DNA of 64,000 nucleotides, from the NCBI GenBank assembly GCA_033764955.1, contig JANRIL010000038.1:32001-96000 (forward strand). The letters run 5' to 3'. This DNA is from Cyanobacteriota bacterium. Its GTDB lineage: Bacteria > Cyanobacteriota > Cyanobacteriia > Thermostichales > Thermostichaceae. The notes beneath the pieces were generated by a model that searched no databases, was not told the DNA's origin, and was given only the letters and a program-made list of their open reading frames with translations. Position numbers and translations under genes: made by a program. This document shows, in pieces, positions 1 to 5,469 of the stretch (the first letter of the stretch is position 1; every line of letters begins with the position of its first letter).

Positions 1-299
1 CGACAGGCGGCCATTCCTACCACCAAGAGGGCTTCCCAAGCGGTGTAACCCAGAGCCTCCCAGCGATCCGCGGCTAGTCCCGACTGACTGGCTTGCACCA
101 CACTATCCACAATCAGTTTGCCCACATAGGCAATCGCCGCCGGTAGGATCCCCCCCAGCAGGGTGAGTCCCGCTACTATTAGGGTCAACCGCGCATGGGT
201 CGTCCAGACGAGACGGATGGCTCGCCAGATAGAGGGCAATAGGCTTTTAACCGGGATCCGAGGATCAGCAGGACGAGGAGGCGAGACCGCAGACACCAT
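1..299 (-). CDS. ABC transporter fused permease/ATP-binding protein, N-terminal part (runs off the window)
   Basis: Manual translation from ATG at 299: MVSAVSPPRPADPRIPVKSLLPSIWRAIRLVWTTHARLTLIVAGLTLLGGILPAAIAYVGKLIVDSVV, a typical first TM segment of MsbA-like exporters. Confidence 0.7.
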   Translation of the reverse strand, partial: MVSAVSPPRPADPRIPVKSLLPSIWRAIRLVWTTHARLTLIVAGLTLLGGILPAAIAYVGKLIVDSVVQASQSGLAADRWEALGYTAWEALLVVGMAAC

Positions 300-456
300 G
301 CCAATGAGCGCACAACAGCTTCTAGCATGGCACTAGCAATCTGTGGATCCCAAGGGTAAATGGGTTACCGAGTCGCGGTTGTTTTCGGCAGGGATTGATC
401 AAGTCTTGGGATCCTAGGGGTAAGCTGAGCATGGGGCGCAGAGGATTGGCAGGGTT

Positions 457-882
457 ATGACGGACGATCGGGATCCGCAACGGAAAGTCAAAGAAACCTG
501 GGCATGGGTTGCTCTGGTGGGTGTTTTGGTGCCCGGATTGCAGTGGTTACTTTATTTGGGTCATTTTCATCCCCAACAAAGGAAATGGGGCTGGATTTAT
601 TTGGGGATAGGATTTTGTTTTCTGCTGCCGATTGGTGCCTTAAAATATCTCAGTTTGCTACCTCGCCTCGCCTGTTTGTTGGAGGGGTTGTGGCTATTGA
701 GCATGAGCAATGAAGAGTTTGATTCCCGATTTAATCGAGAGCATTCTGGCCTAGAGTGGACGAGTGTGATAGGGCGGGCGGCGTTGGATCCCGAACAACA
801 ATTGGAAGCGATGAAACGGAGTGGTTTGATCACCGAAGCCGAATATCAACAACGACGGCAGGAATTGCGAAAAATCACTTAG
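457..882 (+). CDS. Small membrane protein (TM2/NINE-like N-terminus, SHOCT-like C-terminus)
   Basis: Hydrophobic helices, then a C-terminal LEAMKRSGLITEAEYQQRRQEL SHOCT-type motif. Confidence 0.6.
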   Translation: MTDDRDPQRKVKETWAWVALVGVLVPGLQWLLYLGHFHPQQRKWGWIYLGIGFCFLLPIGALKYLSLLPRLACLLEGLWLLSMSNEEFDSRFNREHSGLEWTSVIGRAALDPEQQLEAMKRSGLITEAEYQQRRQELRKIT

Positions 883-963
883 ATTTTCTTTGCTAAGATT
901 AAGTTTCTGATTGTTTCTCCGTCAGGCTTTGCAAAACACCCTTCATCCAATCTATCCATAACG

Positions 964-1761
964 ATGCGTCCTGCTGTTTTCCCTTGTCTGGCTGTCGTTG
1001 CTGCGATTTTGCTGGTTTTAGGACTAGCTCCGTCCCTTGTTCTTTCTCAAGAGCCGACGGAACTACTGATCTCTGCTGGGGCGAGTTTGAAAGATGCCCT
1101 CAGCGATATTCAAACGCTTTATCAACAGGAACAACCCCAGGTGAAGTTGACCTATAACTTTGGAGCATCGGGATCCCTCAAGCAACAAATTGAGCAGGGT
1201 GCTCCTGTGGATGTCTTTATCTCAGCCGCCCCTCAACCTCTCGCTGATCTGGAAGCCAAAGGGCTTATTTTAGAAAACACCCGCCACAATTTATTGAGCA
1301 ATCGTCTGGTGGTTGTGGTTCCGACTCAAGCGACTGGAGGAAGGGATCCCATCACTACGCTGGCAGATTTGCAACGCCCCGATATTGAGCGCATTGCCAT
1401 GGGGGAACCCAACAGTGTTCCAGCAGGGCAGTATGCCGAACAAGCGATTGCTTCCTATCAACTGACAGAAGCCCTTAAGCCTAAATTAATTTATGCCAAA
1501 GATGTCCGGCAGGTTTTGAGCTATGTGGAAACAGGGAATGTGGATGTAGGGTTTGTCTATATCACCGATGCCAAAGTTTCCCCGCAGGTCAGGGTGGCCT
1601 TCGAGTTGCCGCCGGAGTCCCACAGTGCAATTGTTTATCCGATGGCGGTCATCAAAACCAGCGAGCATCCCACACTAGCCCAAGCCTTTGTGGAATTTTT
1701 GCTGGAGGATGCTGAGGTGCAGGCGATTTTTCAGAAATATGGCTTTCGTGCCCCCGACTAA
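964..1761 (+). CDS. modA: Molybdate ABC transporter substrate-binding protein
   Basis: Signal peptide; SAGASLKDA, NFGASGSLKQQIEQGAPVDVFISA, SVPAGQYA, DVRQVL motifs. Confidence 0.95.
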   Translation: MRPAVFPCLAVVAAILLVLGLAPSLVLSQEPTELLISAGASLKDALSDIQTLYQQEQPQVKLTYNFGASGSLKQQIEQGAPVDVFISAAPQPLADLEAKGLILENTRHNLLSNRLVVVVPTQATGGRDPITTLADLQRPDIERIAMGEPNSVPAGQYAEQAIASYQLTEALKPKLIYAKDVRQVLSYVETGNVDVGFVYITDAKVSPQVRVAFELPPESHSAIVYPMAVIKTSEHPTLAQAFVEFLLEDAEVQAIFQKYGFRAPD

Positions 1762-1781
1762 GCCAAGGTCTATCATCAATT

Positions 1782-1867
1782 CGATAACGTTCCCGACCAG
1801 CAGCGGCAGATAACCTTGAACTCAGCACCAGCGGTTCTCGTCCGTCCGCACCAACGCAGTGTTGGGC
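1782..1867 (-). mobile_element. Integron attC-like recombination site (attC1)
   Basis: Minus strand reads GCCCAAC-actgcg-TTGGTGCGGAC...GCCGCTGCTGG-tcgggaac-GTTATCG (86 bp), beginning 7 bp after the vapC stop; R''/L''/L'/R' layout. Confidence 0.75.
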
Positions 1868-1874
1868 TGCGCTG

Positions 1875-2258
1875 CTACAAGACGCTAACTAAGTAGGCAC
1901 GAACAGCTGCATCTACTGTAGCAATGGTCAAACCGTTTTGTAATGCCTGACAGATGAGCATTCTGTCAAACGGATCACGATGCAATGGTGGCAGTTTAGG
2001 CAGTTGAATCACACTGCTTTCATCAAGAGCAAGGCTGGCAATTTGATGAAGGTCACGTTGCTTAGGTAAATATATTTCGGGAGGTTCTGGCAGGGGTAAC
2101 TTGCCCAACTGGTACTTGACAATTGCTTCCCAGATTGAAACTGAACTCAGATAGGCTTCGTTGTCTGGATCACGAATCGCATCCCGAACGTCCGTTGATA
2201 ACTGAATGTCACCGCTAATGAACCATAAGAAAATATGCGTATCTAGCAAAATTCTCAT
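1875..2258 (-). CDS. vapC: PIN-domain (VapC family) toxin
   Basis: MRILLDTHIFLW...SSVSIWE...HRDPFDRMLICQA...TIATVD. Real start is the ATG at 2258, which overlaps the antitoxin stop (ATGA). Confidence 0.92.
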   Translation of the reverse strand: MRILLDTHIFLWFISGDIQLSTDVRDAIRDPDNEAYLSSVSIWEAIVKYQLGKLPLPEPPEIYLPKQRDLHQIASLALDESSVIQLPKLPPLHRDPFDRMLICQALQNGLTIATVDAAVRAYLVSVL

Positions 2259-2491
2259 TTGCCCTCGAATGCGTTGAGCAGATCTTCCGGTAAAGAAGCG
2301 TCGAAATCGTCTGGAACAGTAAACTCGCCTGCACATAAACCAAATGGTCGTAATTGCTTACTATTGACAACAGGTTTAAGTTCAGCAATCGGCTTGTTAG
2401 ATCTAAAAATGACAAGCGTCTCGCCCGCCTCTACTTGATTCAGATACTTAAGAGGATCGCGCTGAATATCATCAACCGTTACATTCAACAT
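2255..2491 (-). CDS. Phd/YefM family antitoxin
   Basis: LNQVEAGETLVIFRSNKPIAELKP...RPFGL...VPDDFDASLP; directly upstream of the PIN toxin. Confidence 0.9.
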   Translation of the reverse strand: MLNVTVDDIQRDPLKYLNQVEAGETLVIFRSNKPIAELKPVVNSKQLRPFGLCAGEFTVPDDFDASLPEDLLNAFEGK

Positions 2492-2547
2492 TGGCTTGCC
2501 TCAATACAACTCGACATATACATCAAAATCCAAAGCAGTGAAACATT

Positions 2548-3039
2548 TCAAAGCTTCTCTAAGTAAAGAGTTTTGATCTGAAATGCAACTTTTCTAGCCT
2601 GAATCAAGGGTATTGGATAGCCAATTGTGTTGTACCCTTTATTGGCTACACTTCTTTCTTTGAGAGACTTCTGTAATTCCCAAACCAAAGCCCTTAGCTT
2701 TCCTGGTTTGAAGGCAATAATTTCCTGCTCTGGTATGAGAAAGATCCAGTAATCGGCTTGTGAACTCCACCCCCATCCTGGAATAAGCTCCTTGTCATTT
2801 GAAACAGTTTCAAAGAAAAGGTTGCCTGTTCGTTTAGCAGCCATGTCAAATTTGTACTCAATCGTGATGACTGATCCATCTAGACGTGTAACGACTCGAT
2901 CAATCCCTGATTGTTGGTACTTCAGATCTTCAGAAACATCCAGCACCTTATAAGTAGAGGATAACCATTGGTCTAGGAATGTTTCGCCTTCCTGCCCAAC
3001 TTTGCGCTGAGTGTGAAAATCGTACTGTCTAGTTTGCAT
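2548..3039 (-). CDS. PD-(D/E)XK superfamily nuclease (putative)
   Basis: GQEGE...GID...IEYK catalytic-type motifs followed by TGNLFFE...GW. Probable start is the ATG at 3039, overlapping the upstream ORF end (the track starts at 3072). Confidence 0.7.
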   Translation of the reverse strand: MQTRQYDFHTQRKVGQEGETFLDQWLSSTYKVLDVSEDLKYQQSGIDRVVTRLDGSVITIEYKFDMAAKRTGNLFFETVSNDKELIPGWGWSSQADYWIFLIPEQEIIAFKPGKLRALVWELQKSLKERSVANKGYNTIGYPIPLIQARKVAFQIKTLYLEKL

Positions 3040-3256
3040 AGATGTAAGGGATGTAGAGTTGAACATCATCATTGCCTTCTCGCCGTATGGGAATCCCTGC
3101 CCACCGTGTCACCCAATTTACTAACGCTCTCAAGGAACTAGCTCGACGAGGATTTGTGGTTCCTCCGCAATCACCCAAACTCACCGCAGAAATGATCTCT
3201 TGGATTAACTCTTTGGTAAGTTCTTTGTCACCACGAGTTGTTTCTTCAATGATCAT
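3029..3256 (-). CDS. C-terminal segment of the winged-helix (DUF7226-like) protein, split from 3253-3897
   Basis: TTNPRRASSLRALVNWV resembles the terminal ST..RRAST...W motif of restriction-associated wHTH domains; it joins the upstream ORF by a -1 shift at 3268-3274. Confidence 0.6.
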   Translation of the reverse strand: MIIEETTRGDKELTKELIQEIISAVSLGDCGGTTNPRRASSLRALVNWVTRWAGIPIRREGNDDVQLYIPYIYAN

Positions 3257-3897
3257 TTGAATCGGGTAAAACCCAACAAAGCTTCTGCTAGAAGACGCTC
3301 ACGAGTCTCTGAATCATTGCTCTGAGCAATTCGTTGACCTCGCTCCGTCAAAACATAAGTGCTTGTAGATTGCTTTTCAATTTGACACCGACTAGCAAGA
3401 CCAATCTCAATAATAGGTCGCCCAAGATAGTCACCTCTCCTTGCCAGATCTTTATCTTTCTTTGCACCACTACCAAATGCAATACCTAAATCTTTCGGAG
3501 TGTTGATTCCACAATGAATTAATTCAACAGTTCTGATAAATTTATGCGGATCACCGATTTGGGGAATGTAGACGGGTTGATCCTCACCACTGCGAAGATC
3601 TTGCTCTAGAGCAGTTCTCCAATCGATTGAGTGAGACATCTGTTTGAATTCATAGAATCTGATCTCTTTCCTGGCAACATCGACAGTATAAGTAATCTGG
3701 AAGGTTCGCCCTGTGATTTCATAGACTAATTCTGTAATACCTGGCTTTATTCCACAGCTAGCTCCTTTGACTTCACCACATTGTTTGAGAGTCTCTAGAA
3801 CAGGAGAAAGTTCTTGCTCCAATTCAGCATCCCAAAATGCGTTTCTATCGAAAAACGTTGATTTAACTTGATAATCGAAATACGTAAACCTGTACAC
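3253..3897 (-). CDS. RelE/ParE-like N-terminal domain fused to a winged-helix (DUF7226-like) domain
   Basis: GTG start with AAGGAG RBS at 3905-3910. N-term ELVYEITGRTFQITYTVDVARKEIRFYEF (RelE-like beta strands); C-term IPQ...RRGDYL...IGL...YVLTERGQRI...RERLLAEALL. Confidence 0.55.
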   Translation of the reverse strand: MYRFTYFDYQVKSTFFDRNAFWDAELEQELSPVLETLKQCGEVKGASCGIKPGITELVYEITGRTFQITYTVDVARKEIRFYEFKQMSHSIDWRTALEQDLRSGEDQPVYIPQIGDPHKFIRTVELIHCGINTPKDLGIAFGSGAKKDKDLARRGDYLGRPIIEIGLASRCQIEKQSTSTYVLTERGQRIAQSNDSETRERLLAEALLGFTRFK

Positions 3898-3918
3898 TTT
3901 ATCACTCCTTAAGTTGAA

Positions 3919-4314
3919 TCAGATCTGAATTTCAGAAGGAAGAAATAAAACTTTATCGGCATCACCGATCAGCGGTAGTGAAAGGTGATGAGTGAAACGA
4001 GGCGATACGAATGCAACAACTCGTCTTTTGTGAAACGTTAAATAGATACAGTCCGTACCTCCCAGAAGCTTTTCCCATGCTTCGGTTAACTGGTCCCGGA
4101 ACTCAGTCAGAGGAACTTCTTCACTTTTCTGAACACTAATTTCGCTGTCTCCAGAATTAAGTTCATCAATATCTTGAAGAGGAAGCAGGAAAGCTGCCAC
4201 TTCTCCATAATGAGTACACACAATGCGTAAGTTACCCGACTGAACCTGTCGCCTAAGTTTTGGCAGTTTGACCCGTAACTCTGACATTGGGATTTGCTTA
4301 AAACGTTTGTTCAT
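3919..4314 (-). CDS. Tandem-duplicated Phd/YefM-like protein
   Basis: Two Phd-like repeats: QIPMSELRVKLPKLRRQVQSGNLRIVCTHYGEVAAFLLP and EVPLTEFRDQLTEAWEKLLGGTDCIYLTFHKRRVVAFVSP. Confidence 0.65.
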   Translation of the reverse strand: MNKRFKQIPMSELRVKLPKLRRQVQSGNLRIVCTHYGEVAAFLLPLQDIDELNSGDSEISVQKSEEVPLTEFRDQLTEAWEKLLGGTDCIYLTFHKRRVVAFVSPRFTHHLSLPLIGDADKVLFLPSEIQI

Positions 4315-4340
4315 GTTTACCAGCCCTATCCCTACACCTC

Positions 4341-4369
4341 ATAATGGCAAGGAATTTATTAACTGTCAA
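4341..4369 (-). promoter_or_regulatory. Sigma70-type promoter inside the cassette
   Basis: Minus strand TTGACA-17 bp-CATTAT with TG at the extended -10 position, 26 bp upstream of the 4314 start. Confidence 0.65.
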
Positions 4370-4522
4370 TAGTGTATCACGTTTTTTACATTTTTAGTCC
4401 AAACATCACTGAAATTAGTGCTTTTGGGGGTTTAGATTTTAAGGTGAGAGATGGCTTGAGGTGGCTAAATCCAGAACTCTAGCAGGGAATGCTCAGGCTG
4501 CTGCCCCACCGAGAACTAAGCA

Positions 4523-4610
4523 GCCCAACGGCTAGGGTCAGCGGCGGCGAAAAAAAATAGGCCGCACTGTGAGAGATCTCTGCGCTGTCCGCTGCACCAA
4601 CGTGTTAGGC
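4523..4610 (-). mobile_element. Integron attC-like recombination site (attC2)
   Basis: Minus strand GCCTAAC-acgttg-GTGCAGCGGAC...GCCGCCGCTGAC-cctagcc-GTTGGGC (88 bp); matches RYYYAAC...GTTRRRY with paired inner boxes. Confidence 0.85.
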
Positions 4611-4688
4611 ATGGCAAAGCTGGACTGGACAAAACATGGGAAAACTCGATCGACTCATCGCTAAAAATATTAAACCACGATCGTGTAA

Positions 4689-4785
4689 TATAGCGATGTG
4701 CAGTCGTATGAGGTAGACAAGCATGGGCTACAATCTAACCTGGCAAAGGATTTTACTGTACCTCTCGCCAGCGAATACCGCCATA
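4689..4785. repeat. Degenerate TATAGC-ended inverted-repeat element
   Basis: Left arm tatagcgatgtgcagtcgtatgaggtaga versus reverse complement of the right arm tatggcggtattcgctggcgagaggtaca (18/29 identical). Confidence 0.45.
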
Positions 4786-4825
4786 AATCGATATCACCCA
4801 ACACAGAAATATATATTCTGATTCT

Positions 4826-5113
4826 TCAGTGCCGTGCGAACCAGTATGGAACCTCAGCATTATGAGCTTCCCATAAGTTTTGACATGCAAAATTGATGAA
4901 TTCACATGCAACTTCGTGTGCTGACATATCTTTAGGTATTTGTTCTGCGGCATAGAAAGCGTCGTCCATATTAATCAGCGTGCCAGTCGCAGAGAAAATG
5001 TGTCTACGTTCTTTAGGGTCTTCTCGTAGAGATAGATTTATTGTGTTGACAATCAAAGTGGTTTGAACTTCTGTTATGAATTGAAACTTTTTCCATTCGA
5101 ACTCATTATTCAT
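4826..5113 (-). CDS. Hypothetical protein, probable integron-cassette ORF
   Basis: 95-aa AT-rich ORF upstream of, and co-oriented with, attC2. Confidence 0.6.
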   Translation of the reverse strand: MNNEFEWKKFQFITEVQTTLIVNTINLSLREDPKERRHIFSATGTLINMDDAFYAAEQIPKDMSAHEVACEFINFACQNLWEAHNAEVPYWFARH

Positions 5114-5148
5114 TTTTCTTTAGATTTTGTGATTATTGAAACTGTTGC

Positions 5149-5276
5149 ATATAGCAATCCTATAAGAGTTGTGAAAGCTAGGATCCCTGAGGGATCCCCC
5201 CGCCCTATCGGGCACCCCCCTTAGCAAGAGGGGCTTGGGGGGATCGGTTTTCACGAATCATTTAGGCTTGCTATAT
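5149..5276. mobile_element. MITE-like element with 28-bp imperfect terminal inverted repeats and a GC-rich internal hairpin
   Basis: atatagcaatcctataagagttgtgaaa versus reverse complement of the right end atatagcaagcctaaatgattcgtgaaa (23/28); internal C-run/G-run palindrome. Confidence 0.7.
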
Positions 5277-5469
5277 AAAGTTGGTAAGCTTGATTACCGC
5301 CATTCTCATTAAAAAATTTCTTAACTCGGTCTAAAGATACATATAGATAATCCTTACACAAACCACATGGAAGTTGGCTAGGTTGACTACTTCCTAACAC
5401 ATGGTATGGCTGGCTCTGTGGATTACGCCCTGCATTACATGCTGGACATGGAAACTGATCCTGATTCAT
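5251..5469 (-). CDS. Small putative zinc-binding protein
   Basis: Two CxxC motifs (CPAC, CGLC); its stop codon lies inside the MITE arm. Confidence 0.5.
   Translation of the reverse strand: MNQDQFPCPACNAGRNPQSQPYHVLGSSQPSQLPCGLCKDYLYVSLDRVKKFFNENGGNQAYQLYIASLNDS

Follow-up and report, generated by a model that had tools for sequence, protein, structure and literature searches.

An integron gene cassette of a cyanobacterium carries a toxin-antitoxin- and restriction-like module of undescribed architecture

The stretch analysed here, referred to as the window, comprises 64,000 nucleotides (64 kb) from a Cyanobacteriota bacterium of the family Thermostichaceae (GenBank assembly GCA_033764955.1, contig JANRIL010000038.1, positions 32,001 to 96,000). 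Its minus strand harbors an integron gene cassette of five genes: a Phd/YefM-like gene (A), a gene for a RelE/ParE-fold protein that extends into a restriction-type DNA-binding domain (B), a PD-(D/E)XK nuclease gene (C), and a Phd-like antitoxin gene followed by a PIN-domain gene. An earlier note on this DNA, made from the sequence alone, had proposed here a defence operon of a tandem Phd protein, a RelE-like/winged-helix fusion, and a nuclease. Together, A, B, and C are classed as a type II toxin-antitoxin (TA) and restriction-like module of undescribed architecture. The cassette and the parts of the module are as follows (window positions; nt, nucleotides; aa, amino acids; ORF, open reading frame):

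1788..4528, minus strand: whole integron gene cassette, 2,741 nt; its left end is the first T after the G/TT crossover of the preceding attC, its right end the G of its own attC
4380..4394, minus strand: conserved element AAAATGTAAAAAACG just upstream of the -35 box, candidate operator
4341..4369, minus strand: sigma-70-type promoter, TTGACA-17-CATTAT, with a TG extension before the -10 box
3919..4314, minus strand: gene A, 131 aa, Phd/YefM-family antitoxin-like, two Phd-like repeats and a C-terminal tail
3029..3897, minus strand: gene B, broken into two ORFs in this copy; RelE/ParE-fold domain, winged helix, and helical DUF7226
3253..3897, minus strand: 5' ORF of B, 214 aa, GTG start behind AAGGAG
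3029..3256, minus strand: 3' ORF of B, 75 aa, starting within the stop of the preceding B ORF (ATGA)
2548..3072, minus strand: gene C, 174-aa ORF with a likely start at 3039 (163 aa), overlapping the end of B

Three tightly packed minus-strand genes had been described for this region. The packing stands, with the antitoxin-like gene first, a spacing of 21 nt between A and B, and an overlap of B and C, whereas the number does not: four ORFs are present (A, B, the 75-aa ORF, and C), as B is split by a frame break. The overlap between C and the 75-aa ORF measures 44 nt, or 11 nt with the start of C placed at codon 12, as in the 163-aa homologues. For comparison, 40 related loci besides the window were collected, with 26 distinct variants of B at 98% nucleotide identity. 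The promoter matches at 10 of 12 positions, is the best site within 1700-4700, and is conserved in the aligned upstream regions (24 of 26 sequences, 80%-consensus line), so that the promoter assigned to the operon in the earlier note is retained; the number of promoter-like sites in the same interval is not above that of shuffled sequences (7 versus 4.8 +/- 2.3). The element AAAATGTAAAAAACG is kept even in distant loci with an altered -35 box (L028, L059, L063, and L002), and a role as operator is a candidate function for it.

As judged from its sequence, A belongs to the Phd/YefM type of proteins, and its N-terminal domain is duplicated. The N-terminal Phd/YefM domain is recognized by PF02604 with an E value of 2.6e-6 and 27.5 bits, which lies below the Pfam cut-off of 29.8; precomputed matches to the same family exist for many of the 98 homologues of A, and NCBI names them Phd/YefM family antitoxin. 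The N half also resembles RelB1 of M. tuberculosis (9g12_C, E 0.014), and the C half alone finds no match in Pfam or in a profile search of solved structures. When the profile of residues 1-60 is compared with that of residues 61-131, the two match in register along 41 columns (hhalign 75%, E 2.5e-5). The tandem Phd arrangement claimed earlier is thus recovered from PF02604, the NCBI names, and the alignment of the two halves. Among the three proteins A is the best conserved, showing 83-90% identity where B shows 65-79%.

The 214-aa ORF and the 75-aa ORF are parts of one gene, because homologues of B are 289 aa long, and the model of DUF7226 is divided between them, with its positions 28-86 in the end of B and 90-139 in the 75-aa ORF (Pfam). 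The 88 homologues are mostly 286-297 aa in length and contain DUF7226; the best is 90% identical. The structure model was made on the intact homologue P0001 (predicted local distance difference test, pLDDT, 83.6). Residues 1-90 (pLDDT 81-93) show the beta-alpha-alpha-beta-beta-beta(-beta) fold of the RelE/ParE (BECR-fold) superfamily and are similar to RelE, YoeB, HigB, YafQ, and ParE. The closest match is RelE of P. horikoshii (1wmi_C; Z 10.1, root mean square deviation, rmsd, 3.3, 84 of 88 residues aligned with VIA-align), followed by YoeB (7v6w_F, Z 9.2) and RelE1 (9g12_B, Z 9.0). Foldseek likewise assigns RelE with a probability of 1.00 (TMt 0.67, E 1.1e-2), with no row at E 0.001. Residues 115-198 form a MarR-type winged helix (Z ~9), and the RelE-like/winged-helix fusion of the earlier note is found as described. 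At the level of sequence, Pfam places DUF7226 at residues 153-264 (E 8.6e-9) and gives no match, and in particular no toxin model, for residues 1-116. A sequence-profile search of B against solved structures returned chance-level rows only, the ESM Atlas returned only the query proteins' own clusters, and a single marginal match of 38 residues was obtained for the B family in viral contigs.

Conservation within the B family was evaluated on 30 full-length members, the most distant at 23% identity. All residues found to be invariant, R153, L167, T248, and R251, belong to the DUF7226-type domain. In the RelE-fold part (residues 1-100), only L37, G41, and Y70 are conserved in at least 90% of the members; E42, H89, and D92 are retained in a close subfamily only, and no polar residue of this domain is conserved across the 30 members. 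The set of basic, acidic, and His/Tyr catalytic residues that marks RelE/YoeB-type ribosome-dependent mRNases is thus not found, and the lack of a conserved polar residue indicates that the RelE-fold domain is probably not an active RelE-type RNase. An active site shared by the whole family is unlikely in this part of B, as far as residue conservation can tell.

The second half of B has its relatives elsewhere. A search of the B profile against 1.84 billion representatives yielded 86 proteins at E <= 0.001, about 35 of them full length; the remainder consists of stand-alone DUF7226 proteins of 160-190 aa, proteins of 420-445 aa, and fragments. The domain order of the 420-445-aa proteins is DUF6996-DUF6997-DUF7226 (all three domains in 9 of 20 scanned), and the PADLOC model REase_II (Type II restriction enzyme) matches them from end to end with an E value of 1e-102. 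On a plasmid of Stanieria, the gene for one member of this restriction-enzyme family immediately follows that of a DNA adenine methylase. Residues 109-282 of B are homologous to the C-terminal domain of these enzymes (hhalign 99.4%, E 1.5e-21), in agreement with the restriction-type domain that had been suggested. B therefore joins a RelE/ParE-fold domain to a restriction-type DNA-binding domain composed of the winged helix and the helices of DUF7226. The family itself has no solved relative detectable by sequence. In a sample of 401 cyanobacterial genomes drawn evenly across the phylum it was matched in 20 genomes, and it also occurs on plasmids of Lactiplantibacillus, Enterococcus, staphylococci, and others, where its members are annotated as 'hypothetical protein' or, wrongly, as 'translation elongation factor'.

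The module resembles these DUF6996-DUF6997-DUF7226 enzymes, which are paired with a Dam-like methylase, in region 109-282 of B, including the motifs PQ.(G/N)D, R(R/H)G.Y, and T..RRA, and in the possession of a PD-(D/E)XK nuclease with a similar D-12/13-ExK spacing. It differs in that the nuclease is a separate protein without significant similarity to DUF6997, that a RelE fold takes the place of the N-terminal DUF6996-DUF6997, and that a methylase is lacking. The PADLOC model (PDLC03513) does not match B (P0001) at E <= 0.1; instead of the full length with its nuclease domain, only residues 109-282 align. Nor is a methyltransferase, as would adjoin a Type II restriction-modification system, present among the five genes of the cassette.

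The present copy of B lacks one T in the run GGGTTTT/ACCC (minus strand, 3271-3268). In the DNA alignment, all 12 related genomes have the additional base, and an intact related B comprises 289 aa. The contigs of four of four public runs that were aligned (four studies; hot spring, outdoor, soil RNA library, and wastewater) have it as well, being about 97% identical to the window and in no case identical. A programmed frameshift was considered and ruled out, because a single open frame runs through all relatives. Unless the missing T is an assembly error, the module is probably inactive in this genome. Whether this copy is a decaying remnant with no present function is evenly balanced: the 1-nt deletion that splits B is absent from the 12 related genomes and from the four runs, as expected for decay, whereas its position in a homopolymer would also fit an assembly error, and A, C, and the PIN pair are intact. 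In any case, decay would concern this copy only and not the nature of the module.

Gene C encodes a PD-(D/E)XK nuclease with an intact D...ExK motif, as seen from its sequence family and from its structure model (pLDDT 88.4). The model has the alpha-beta-beta-beta-alpha-beta core of the PD-(D/E)XK superfamily, and nearly all of the 50 rows of structural matches are enzymes of this type (Foldseek E 6.9e-4). I-Ssp6803I (2ost_A) is the best match (Z 9.4, 120 residues aligned, rmsd 3.0); further matches are ThaI (3ndh_B, Z 8.5), Hjc (Z 8.4 for 2wcw_A, and 8.0), and PvuII (Z 7.4). D58, E72, and K74 are invariant in 42 sequences down to 24% identity. The nuclease assignment of the earlier note is thereby substantiated, although by sequence none of the 42 members matches a Pfam family, no NCBIfam match was found for C, and a sequence-profile search against solved structures gave chance-level rows only. 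The sole match among the PHROGs is phrog_13596 (function not assigned, E 3.8e-11). An origin of C as the split-off nuclease domain of the DUF6997 restriction enzymes, and hence a 'split restriction enzyme', was considered and is not supported by sequence (hhalign probability 0.1%), even though the aligned columns are those of the D...ExK motifs.

Genes similar to C occur in 17 of the 401 genomes, most of them distant and with other neighbours. In one genus (g4; L004-L008), nucleases about 50% identical to C have an ATPase of the ParA/MinD type and a protein of 148 aa as neighbours, opposite a TPR protein, and are without A or B. The 393-aa neighbour of a distant C-like gene (L013) had been considered a methyltransferase and was dropped, as it has no Pfam match.

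Across the related loci, A and B are almost always found together, and C follows in most. Gene A precedes B in 23 of the 24 variants that allow an assessment, the two other contigs starting inside B, and the sole variant without A upstream is a truncated remnant of B. Downstream of B, C is present in 21 of 26 variants, which answers the question raised earlier whether the three-gene order recurs elsewhere. C is missing in three variants (deleted in L023, absent in L026 and L027) and replaced in two by the following gene:

L075:389-1282 (genome G260) and L077:2241-3134 (genome G234): gene for an alternative 297-aa protein in the position after A-B

This 297-aa protein has no Pfam family above cut-off and no solved relative. 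Named records of the A, B, and C families are all cyanobacterial. In the sample of 401 genomes, full-length B was found in four and a fragment in one; 19 further genomes match via DUF7226 only, with open frames of 377-444 aa. Besides the frameshift in the present B, lesions comprise the deletion of C in L023, broken frames of C in L028 and L066, and an internal deletion of B in L064; such lesions are typical of costly modules. Two rearranged loci were encountered as well. In L027 (5776-6864, P0065), a 362-aa ORF combines the second Phd repeat of A with B in one reading frame; a DUF433-like ORF stands in place of the first repeat, and there is no C. In L056 and L058 (2715-5345), B is present in tandem, in the order A, a B copy with truncated end (58% identical), a second B copy (68% identical), and C.

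According to one explanation, the locus is a classical two-gene type II TA system, with A as the antitoxin and B as a toxin that needs no partner, whether it acts as a RelE-like RNase, by poisoning gyrase in the manner of ParE, or through a DNA-binding block; the winged helix would autoregulate the operon, and C would be an optional, independent passenger or a second effector. This explanation accounts for the invariant A-B core with C missing or replaced in 5 of 26 variants, for the antitoxin in first place with its 21-nt gap, and for the RelE/YoeB/ParE fold as top structural match of B. According to a recent survey, toxins of the ParE type need no catalytic residues, and fusions of toxins to helix-turn-helix (HTH) domains are known in the RelE/ParE superfamily (Gerdes, 2025; PMC11980606). 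The explanation leaves aside that the RelE-fold domain has neither a polar residue conserved throughout the family nor a Pfam toxin match, and that conservation is concentrated in the restriction-type DNA-binding domain. Moreover, C overlaps B in all loci in which it is present, suggesting coupled synthesis of the two proteins. Altogether, this two-gene explanation is regarded as rather unlikely.

A further explanation dispenses with a toxin. The module would then be a methylase-free nuclease of a modification-dependent (type IV-like) or homing type, in which B is responsible for recognition, C for catalysis, and A for transcription regulation, and which acts on foreign or specific DNA only and is harmless to the host. 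The best match of C is indeed a homing endonuclease of cyanobacteria, with restriction enzymes and Hjc within 1 Z unit; the DNA-binding domain of B is of the restriction-enzyme type, and the cassette is without a methylase. Left unexplained are the joint retention of a Phd/YefM protein and a RelE fold in 23 of 24 variants, the frequency of inactivating lesions, and the existence of A-B loci without any nuclease. For a system of this kind that is harmless to its host, the probability is judged to be low, as it is for the division of labor that it assigns to the three proteins.

The reading favored here, tentatively and with slightly less than even confidence, is that of an antitoxin-gated, methylase-free, restriction-like nuclease that serves as an addiction or abortive-infection module. 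It includes the equally provisional assumption that the core of the locus is a three-gene TA-like module controlling a DNA nuclease. A would bind to the RelE-fold domain of B as YefM binds to YoeB, with the tandem Phd repeat mimicking the YefM dimer in a single chain, and would repress the promoter at the AAAATGTAAAAAACG element. The RelE-fold domain would function as a non-catalytic docking or latch domain, the DUF7226 domain would recruit the module to DNA, and cleavage would be carried out by C, the translation of which would be coupled to that of B. In the presence of A, the nuclease would be held off. Once A is lost, whether by proteolysis, by a shut-off that a phage induces, or together with the cassette, B and C would cleave DNA and thereby kill or arrest the cell, resulting in post-segregational stabilisation of the cassette array or in abortive infection. 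A methylase would not be needed, because the antitoxin and not methylation protects the host. The loci with A-B only, together with the exchangeable third gene, point to A-B as the control core and to the third position as an effector slot.

Several observations weigh against this antitoxin-gated nuclease. A-B occurs without C in L026, where B is intact at 295 aa, and in two genomes of one genus C is replaced by the unrelated 297-aa protein, from which it follows that B must have a role independent of C. The winged helix of B could just autoregulate the operon, and the second Phd repeat of A is derived from a single hhalign match of 75% probability. The sequence of C does not significantly resemble the nuclease domain of the DUF6997 restriction enzymes, and C-like nucleases are also encountered alone or with other partners, and in three viral contigs. 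With respect to the earlier proposal of a TA core that has gained a restriction-type winged helix and a nuclease partner, the folds and the gene set are upheld, whereas the RelE domain turns out to be without conserved catalytic residues and C not to be universal. In a more far-reaching version, the module would exemplify a class of methylase-free restriction-like defence, in which a sequence-reading subunit with the restriction-type recognition domain carries a catalytically dead RelE fold that docks a single-chain pseudo-dimeric Phd antitoxin, the effector is exchangeable, the antitoxin instead of DNA methylation protects the host, and its loss upon phage attack or cassette loss would set off the nuclease; such a class is considered unlikely. 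It is also doubtful, to the same extent, whether within such a class the effector would usually be a PD-(D/E)XK DNase and sometimes the 297-aa protein, and whether the class would spread among cyanobacteria as an integron cassette.

No named defence system corresponds to the locus in PADLOC-DB 2.0.0: A, B, the 75-aa piece, C, and the PIN pair are without a match at E <= 1, and full-length B (P0001) and a C homologue are without a match at E <= 0.1. The impression of the earlier note that no named system fits is thus confirmed within this database for all three proteins. A full-text search of the literature found no paper on DUF7226 or DUF6996/DUF6997, and current annotations are limited to 'Phd/YefM antitoxin', 'DUF7226 domain-containing protein', and 'hypothetical protein'. 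With YefM-YoeB, Phd-Doc, and RelBE, the module shares a Phd/YefM-like first gene, a second gene that begins with a RelE/YoeB/ParE fold, the antitoxin-first order, tight packing, an own promoter, and the occurrence in mobile DNA and integron cassettes. In contrast to these systems, the antitoxin-like protein contains two Phd-like repeats in a single chain, the toxin fold is without a Pfam toxin match or conserved catalytic residues and is fused to a restriction-type DNA-binding domain of 180 residues, and a third, overlapping nuclease gene is usually present.

Another comparison is offered by ptuXYZ, a tripartite operon for a DUF262 nuclease, a PtuA-like ATPase, and a PIN-like-YoeB protein, as described in the main text of the same survey (Gerdes, 2025; PMC11980606). 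Both are three-gene candidate defence operons that combine a two-domain protein of RelE-superfamily fold with a restriction-type nuclease; as presented there, ptuXYZ contains neither a Phd antitoxin nor a winged-helix/DUF7226 domain, and a PD-(D/E)XK gene is likewise absent. The main text of this survey of multidomain RelE/ParE toxins, supplements apart, does not contain the terms 'winged', 'cyanobacteri', or 'DUF7226'. TA cassettes of sedentary chromosomal integrons and phage-defence cassettes of integrons, to the extent covered by the accounts drawn on here, are likewise bounded by attC sites and contain an own promoter and addiction- or defence-type genes, and the genome considered here has two integrons. 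As far as those accounts go, the present cassette differs by its five genes and by a gene set that is not among the systems named in PADLOC 2.0. If the antitoxin-gated nuclease holds true, antitoxin control and restriction-type DNA recognition, usually treated as separate ways of host protection, would be linked in one module, and a toxin fold would have been reused as a regulatory docking domain. Cyanobacteria, whose defence repertoire has been little tested, would possess a defence or addiction module specific to the group, and their integrons would move multi-gene modules with own promoters. The exchangeable third gene provides a route to new effectors.

The boundaries of the mobile unit, together with the two remaining genes, are as follows:

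4523..4609, minus strand: attC of the preceding cassette, GCCTAAC ... GTTGGGC (boxes read from the sequence); nhmmer E 3.1e-10, site in the training alignment
1786..1867, minus strand: the cassette's own attC, GCCCAAC-ACTGC-GTTGGTG ... GTT; nhmmer E 1.8e-19, site in the training alignment
2255..2491, minus strand: Phd-like/VapB-like antitoxin, 78 aa; PF02604 E 8.7e-4 and NF050009 VapB E 7e-4, both below the cut-offs
1875..2336, minus strand: PIN-domain (VapC-like) toxin, longest ORF; likely start ATG 2258, overlapping the antitoxin stop

The preceding attC lies ahead of the promoter, and the cassette's own attC follows after the PIN stop. The latter site displays inverse-core and core boxes and the G/TT crossover, and was aligned with the sites of L019 and L021 and nine other sites of the genome. 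An nhmmer profile was trained on 13 sites, both window sites included; it replaced regular expressions, which proved too weak (4 hits versus 3 in the reversed-genome control, and 0 in another). At E < 0.01 the profile finds about 60 sites in the genome, spread over many contigs and in several cases near contig ends. Two intI genes above the TIGR02249 cut-off are present besides fragments, and sites of the same family are arrayed beside both: eight on the plus strand of contig C9 (1690-8455) next to intI at 19-960 (minus), and four on the minus strand of contig C38 (53306-61831) next to intI at 63588-64529 (plus), none of them in the training set. The claim that the locus lies between attC-like sites is thereby sustained. 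The two regions of this genome (G000), C9:19-8455 and C38:53306-64529, are complete integrons with the attC array on the strand opposite to intI. The window's own contig (C11) gave no intI match, so that locally two attC sites are present on a contig without an integrase. Folding of the attC sites as single-stranded DNA was not better than that of shuffles (z -0.8 to +0.7), which speaks against attC identity.

The left junction, G/TTGGGCTGCTTAG, recurs in L020 and L021, where the sequence before it is unrelated. The own attC is likewise found after the PIN gene in L019 and L021, and the sequences part right after GTT. Two public contigs, 2,714 and 2,709 nt long, extend over 1842-4530 and diverge beyond. 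The common G/TT junctions, the flanking attC sites, and the diverging contigs together define the cassette as window positions 1788-4528. In the metagenome loci L050-L052, attC sites are found on both sides of the five-gene unit (nhmmer E 4.8e-11 and 1.3e-23). The unit thus moves as an attC-bounded cassette with an own conserved promoter.

The base composition sets the region apart. The GC content amounts to 0.39-0.44 over 2001-4500 compared with 0.513 for the window, consistent with the AT-richer DNA reported before. GGATCC occurs in 194 copies in the window (mean spacing 330), and the widest gap free of it, 1344-5181, encloses the cassette region, as the earlier note had observed when it called the word absent from the locus and dense in the flanks; this absence marks foreign DNA. 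GGATCC is often located within GGGATCCC and resembles the highly iterated palindromes of cyanobacteria.

The PIN gene matches PF01850 with an E value of 4e-11 and 44 bits, above the cut-off of 23.6. The Phd-like/PIN pair lies 3' of C in 12 of 26 variants and is therefore regarded as a frequent passenger outside the core. More generally, the module is often found beside other TA pairs (PIN, ParE/RelE, and DUF433-DUF5615).

Some minor observations concern the cassette and its surroundings. The 3' half of its own attC deviates from the family consensus; the end at 1786-1810, GGAACGTTATCGAATTGAT, is the same as that of a site on contig C4 of the genome (15479-15567), and the attC looks as if two attC types had recombined. 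Near-identical copies of the cassette were indicated in 20 public rows (X1-X20) from 11 studies, with about half of the sampled words present; their labels include hot spring, soil, wastewater, bioreactor, and dairy, and four of the runs were aligned. In one wastewater contig, 1836 is joined to 4518 across 786 other letters; this joint consisted of pieces of only 22 and 27 nt and was not used, nor was the depth of a metatranscriptome contig over the cassette, as contigs cannot show transcription. Upstream of the cassette, two minus-strand neighbours are located at 4826-5113 (a 95-aa ORF without family) and 5251-5469 (a 72-aa ORF with CxxC pairs and weak zinc-ribbon matches), and a GC-rich palindromic element at 5176-5265, between the two neighbour units, contains two copies of GGATCC.

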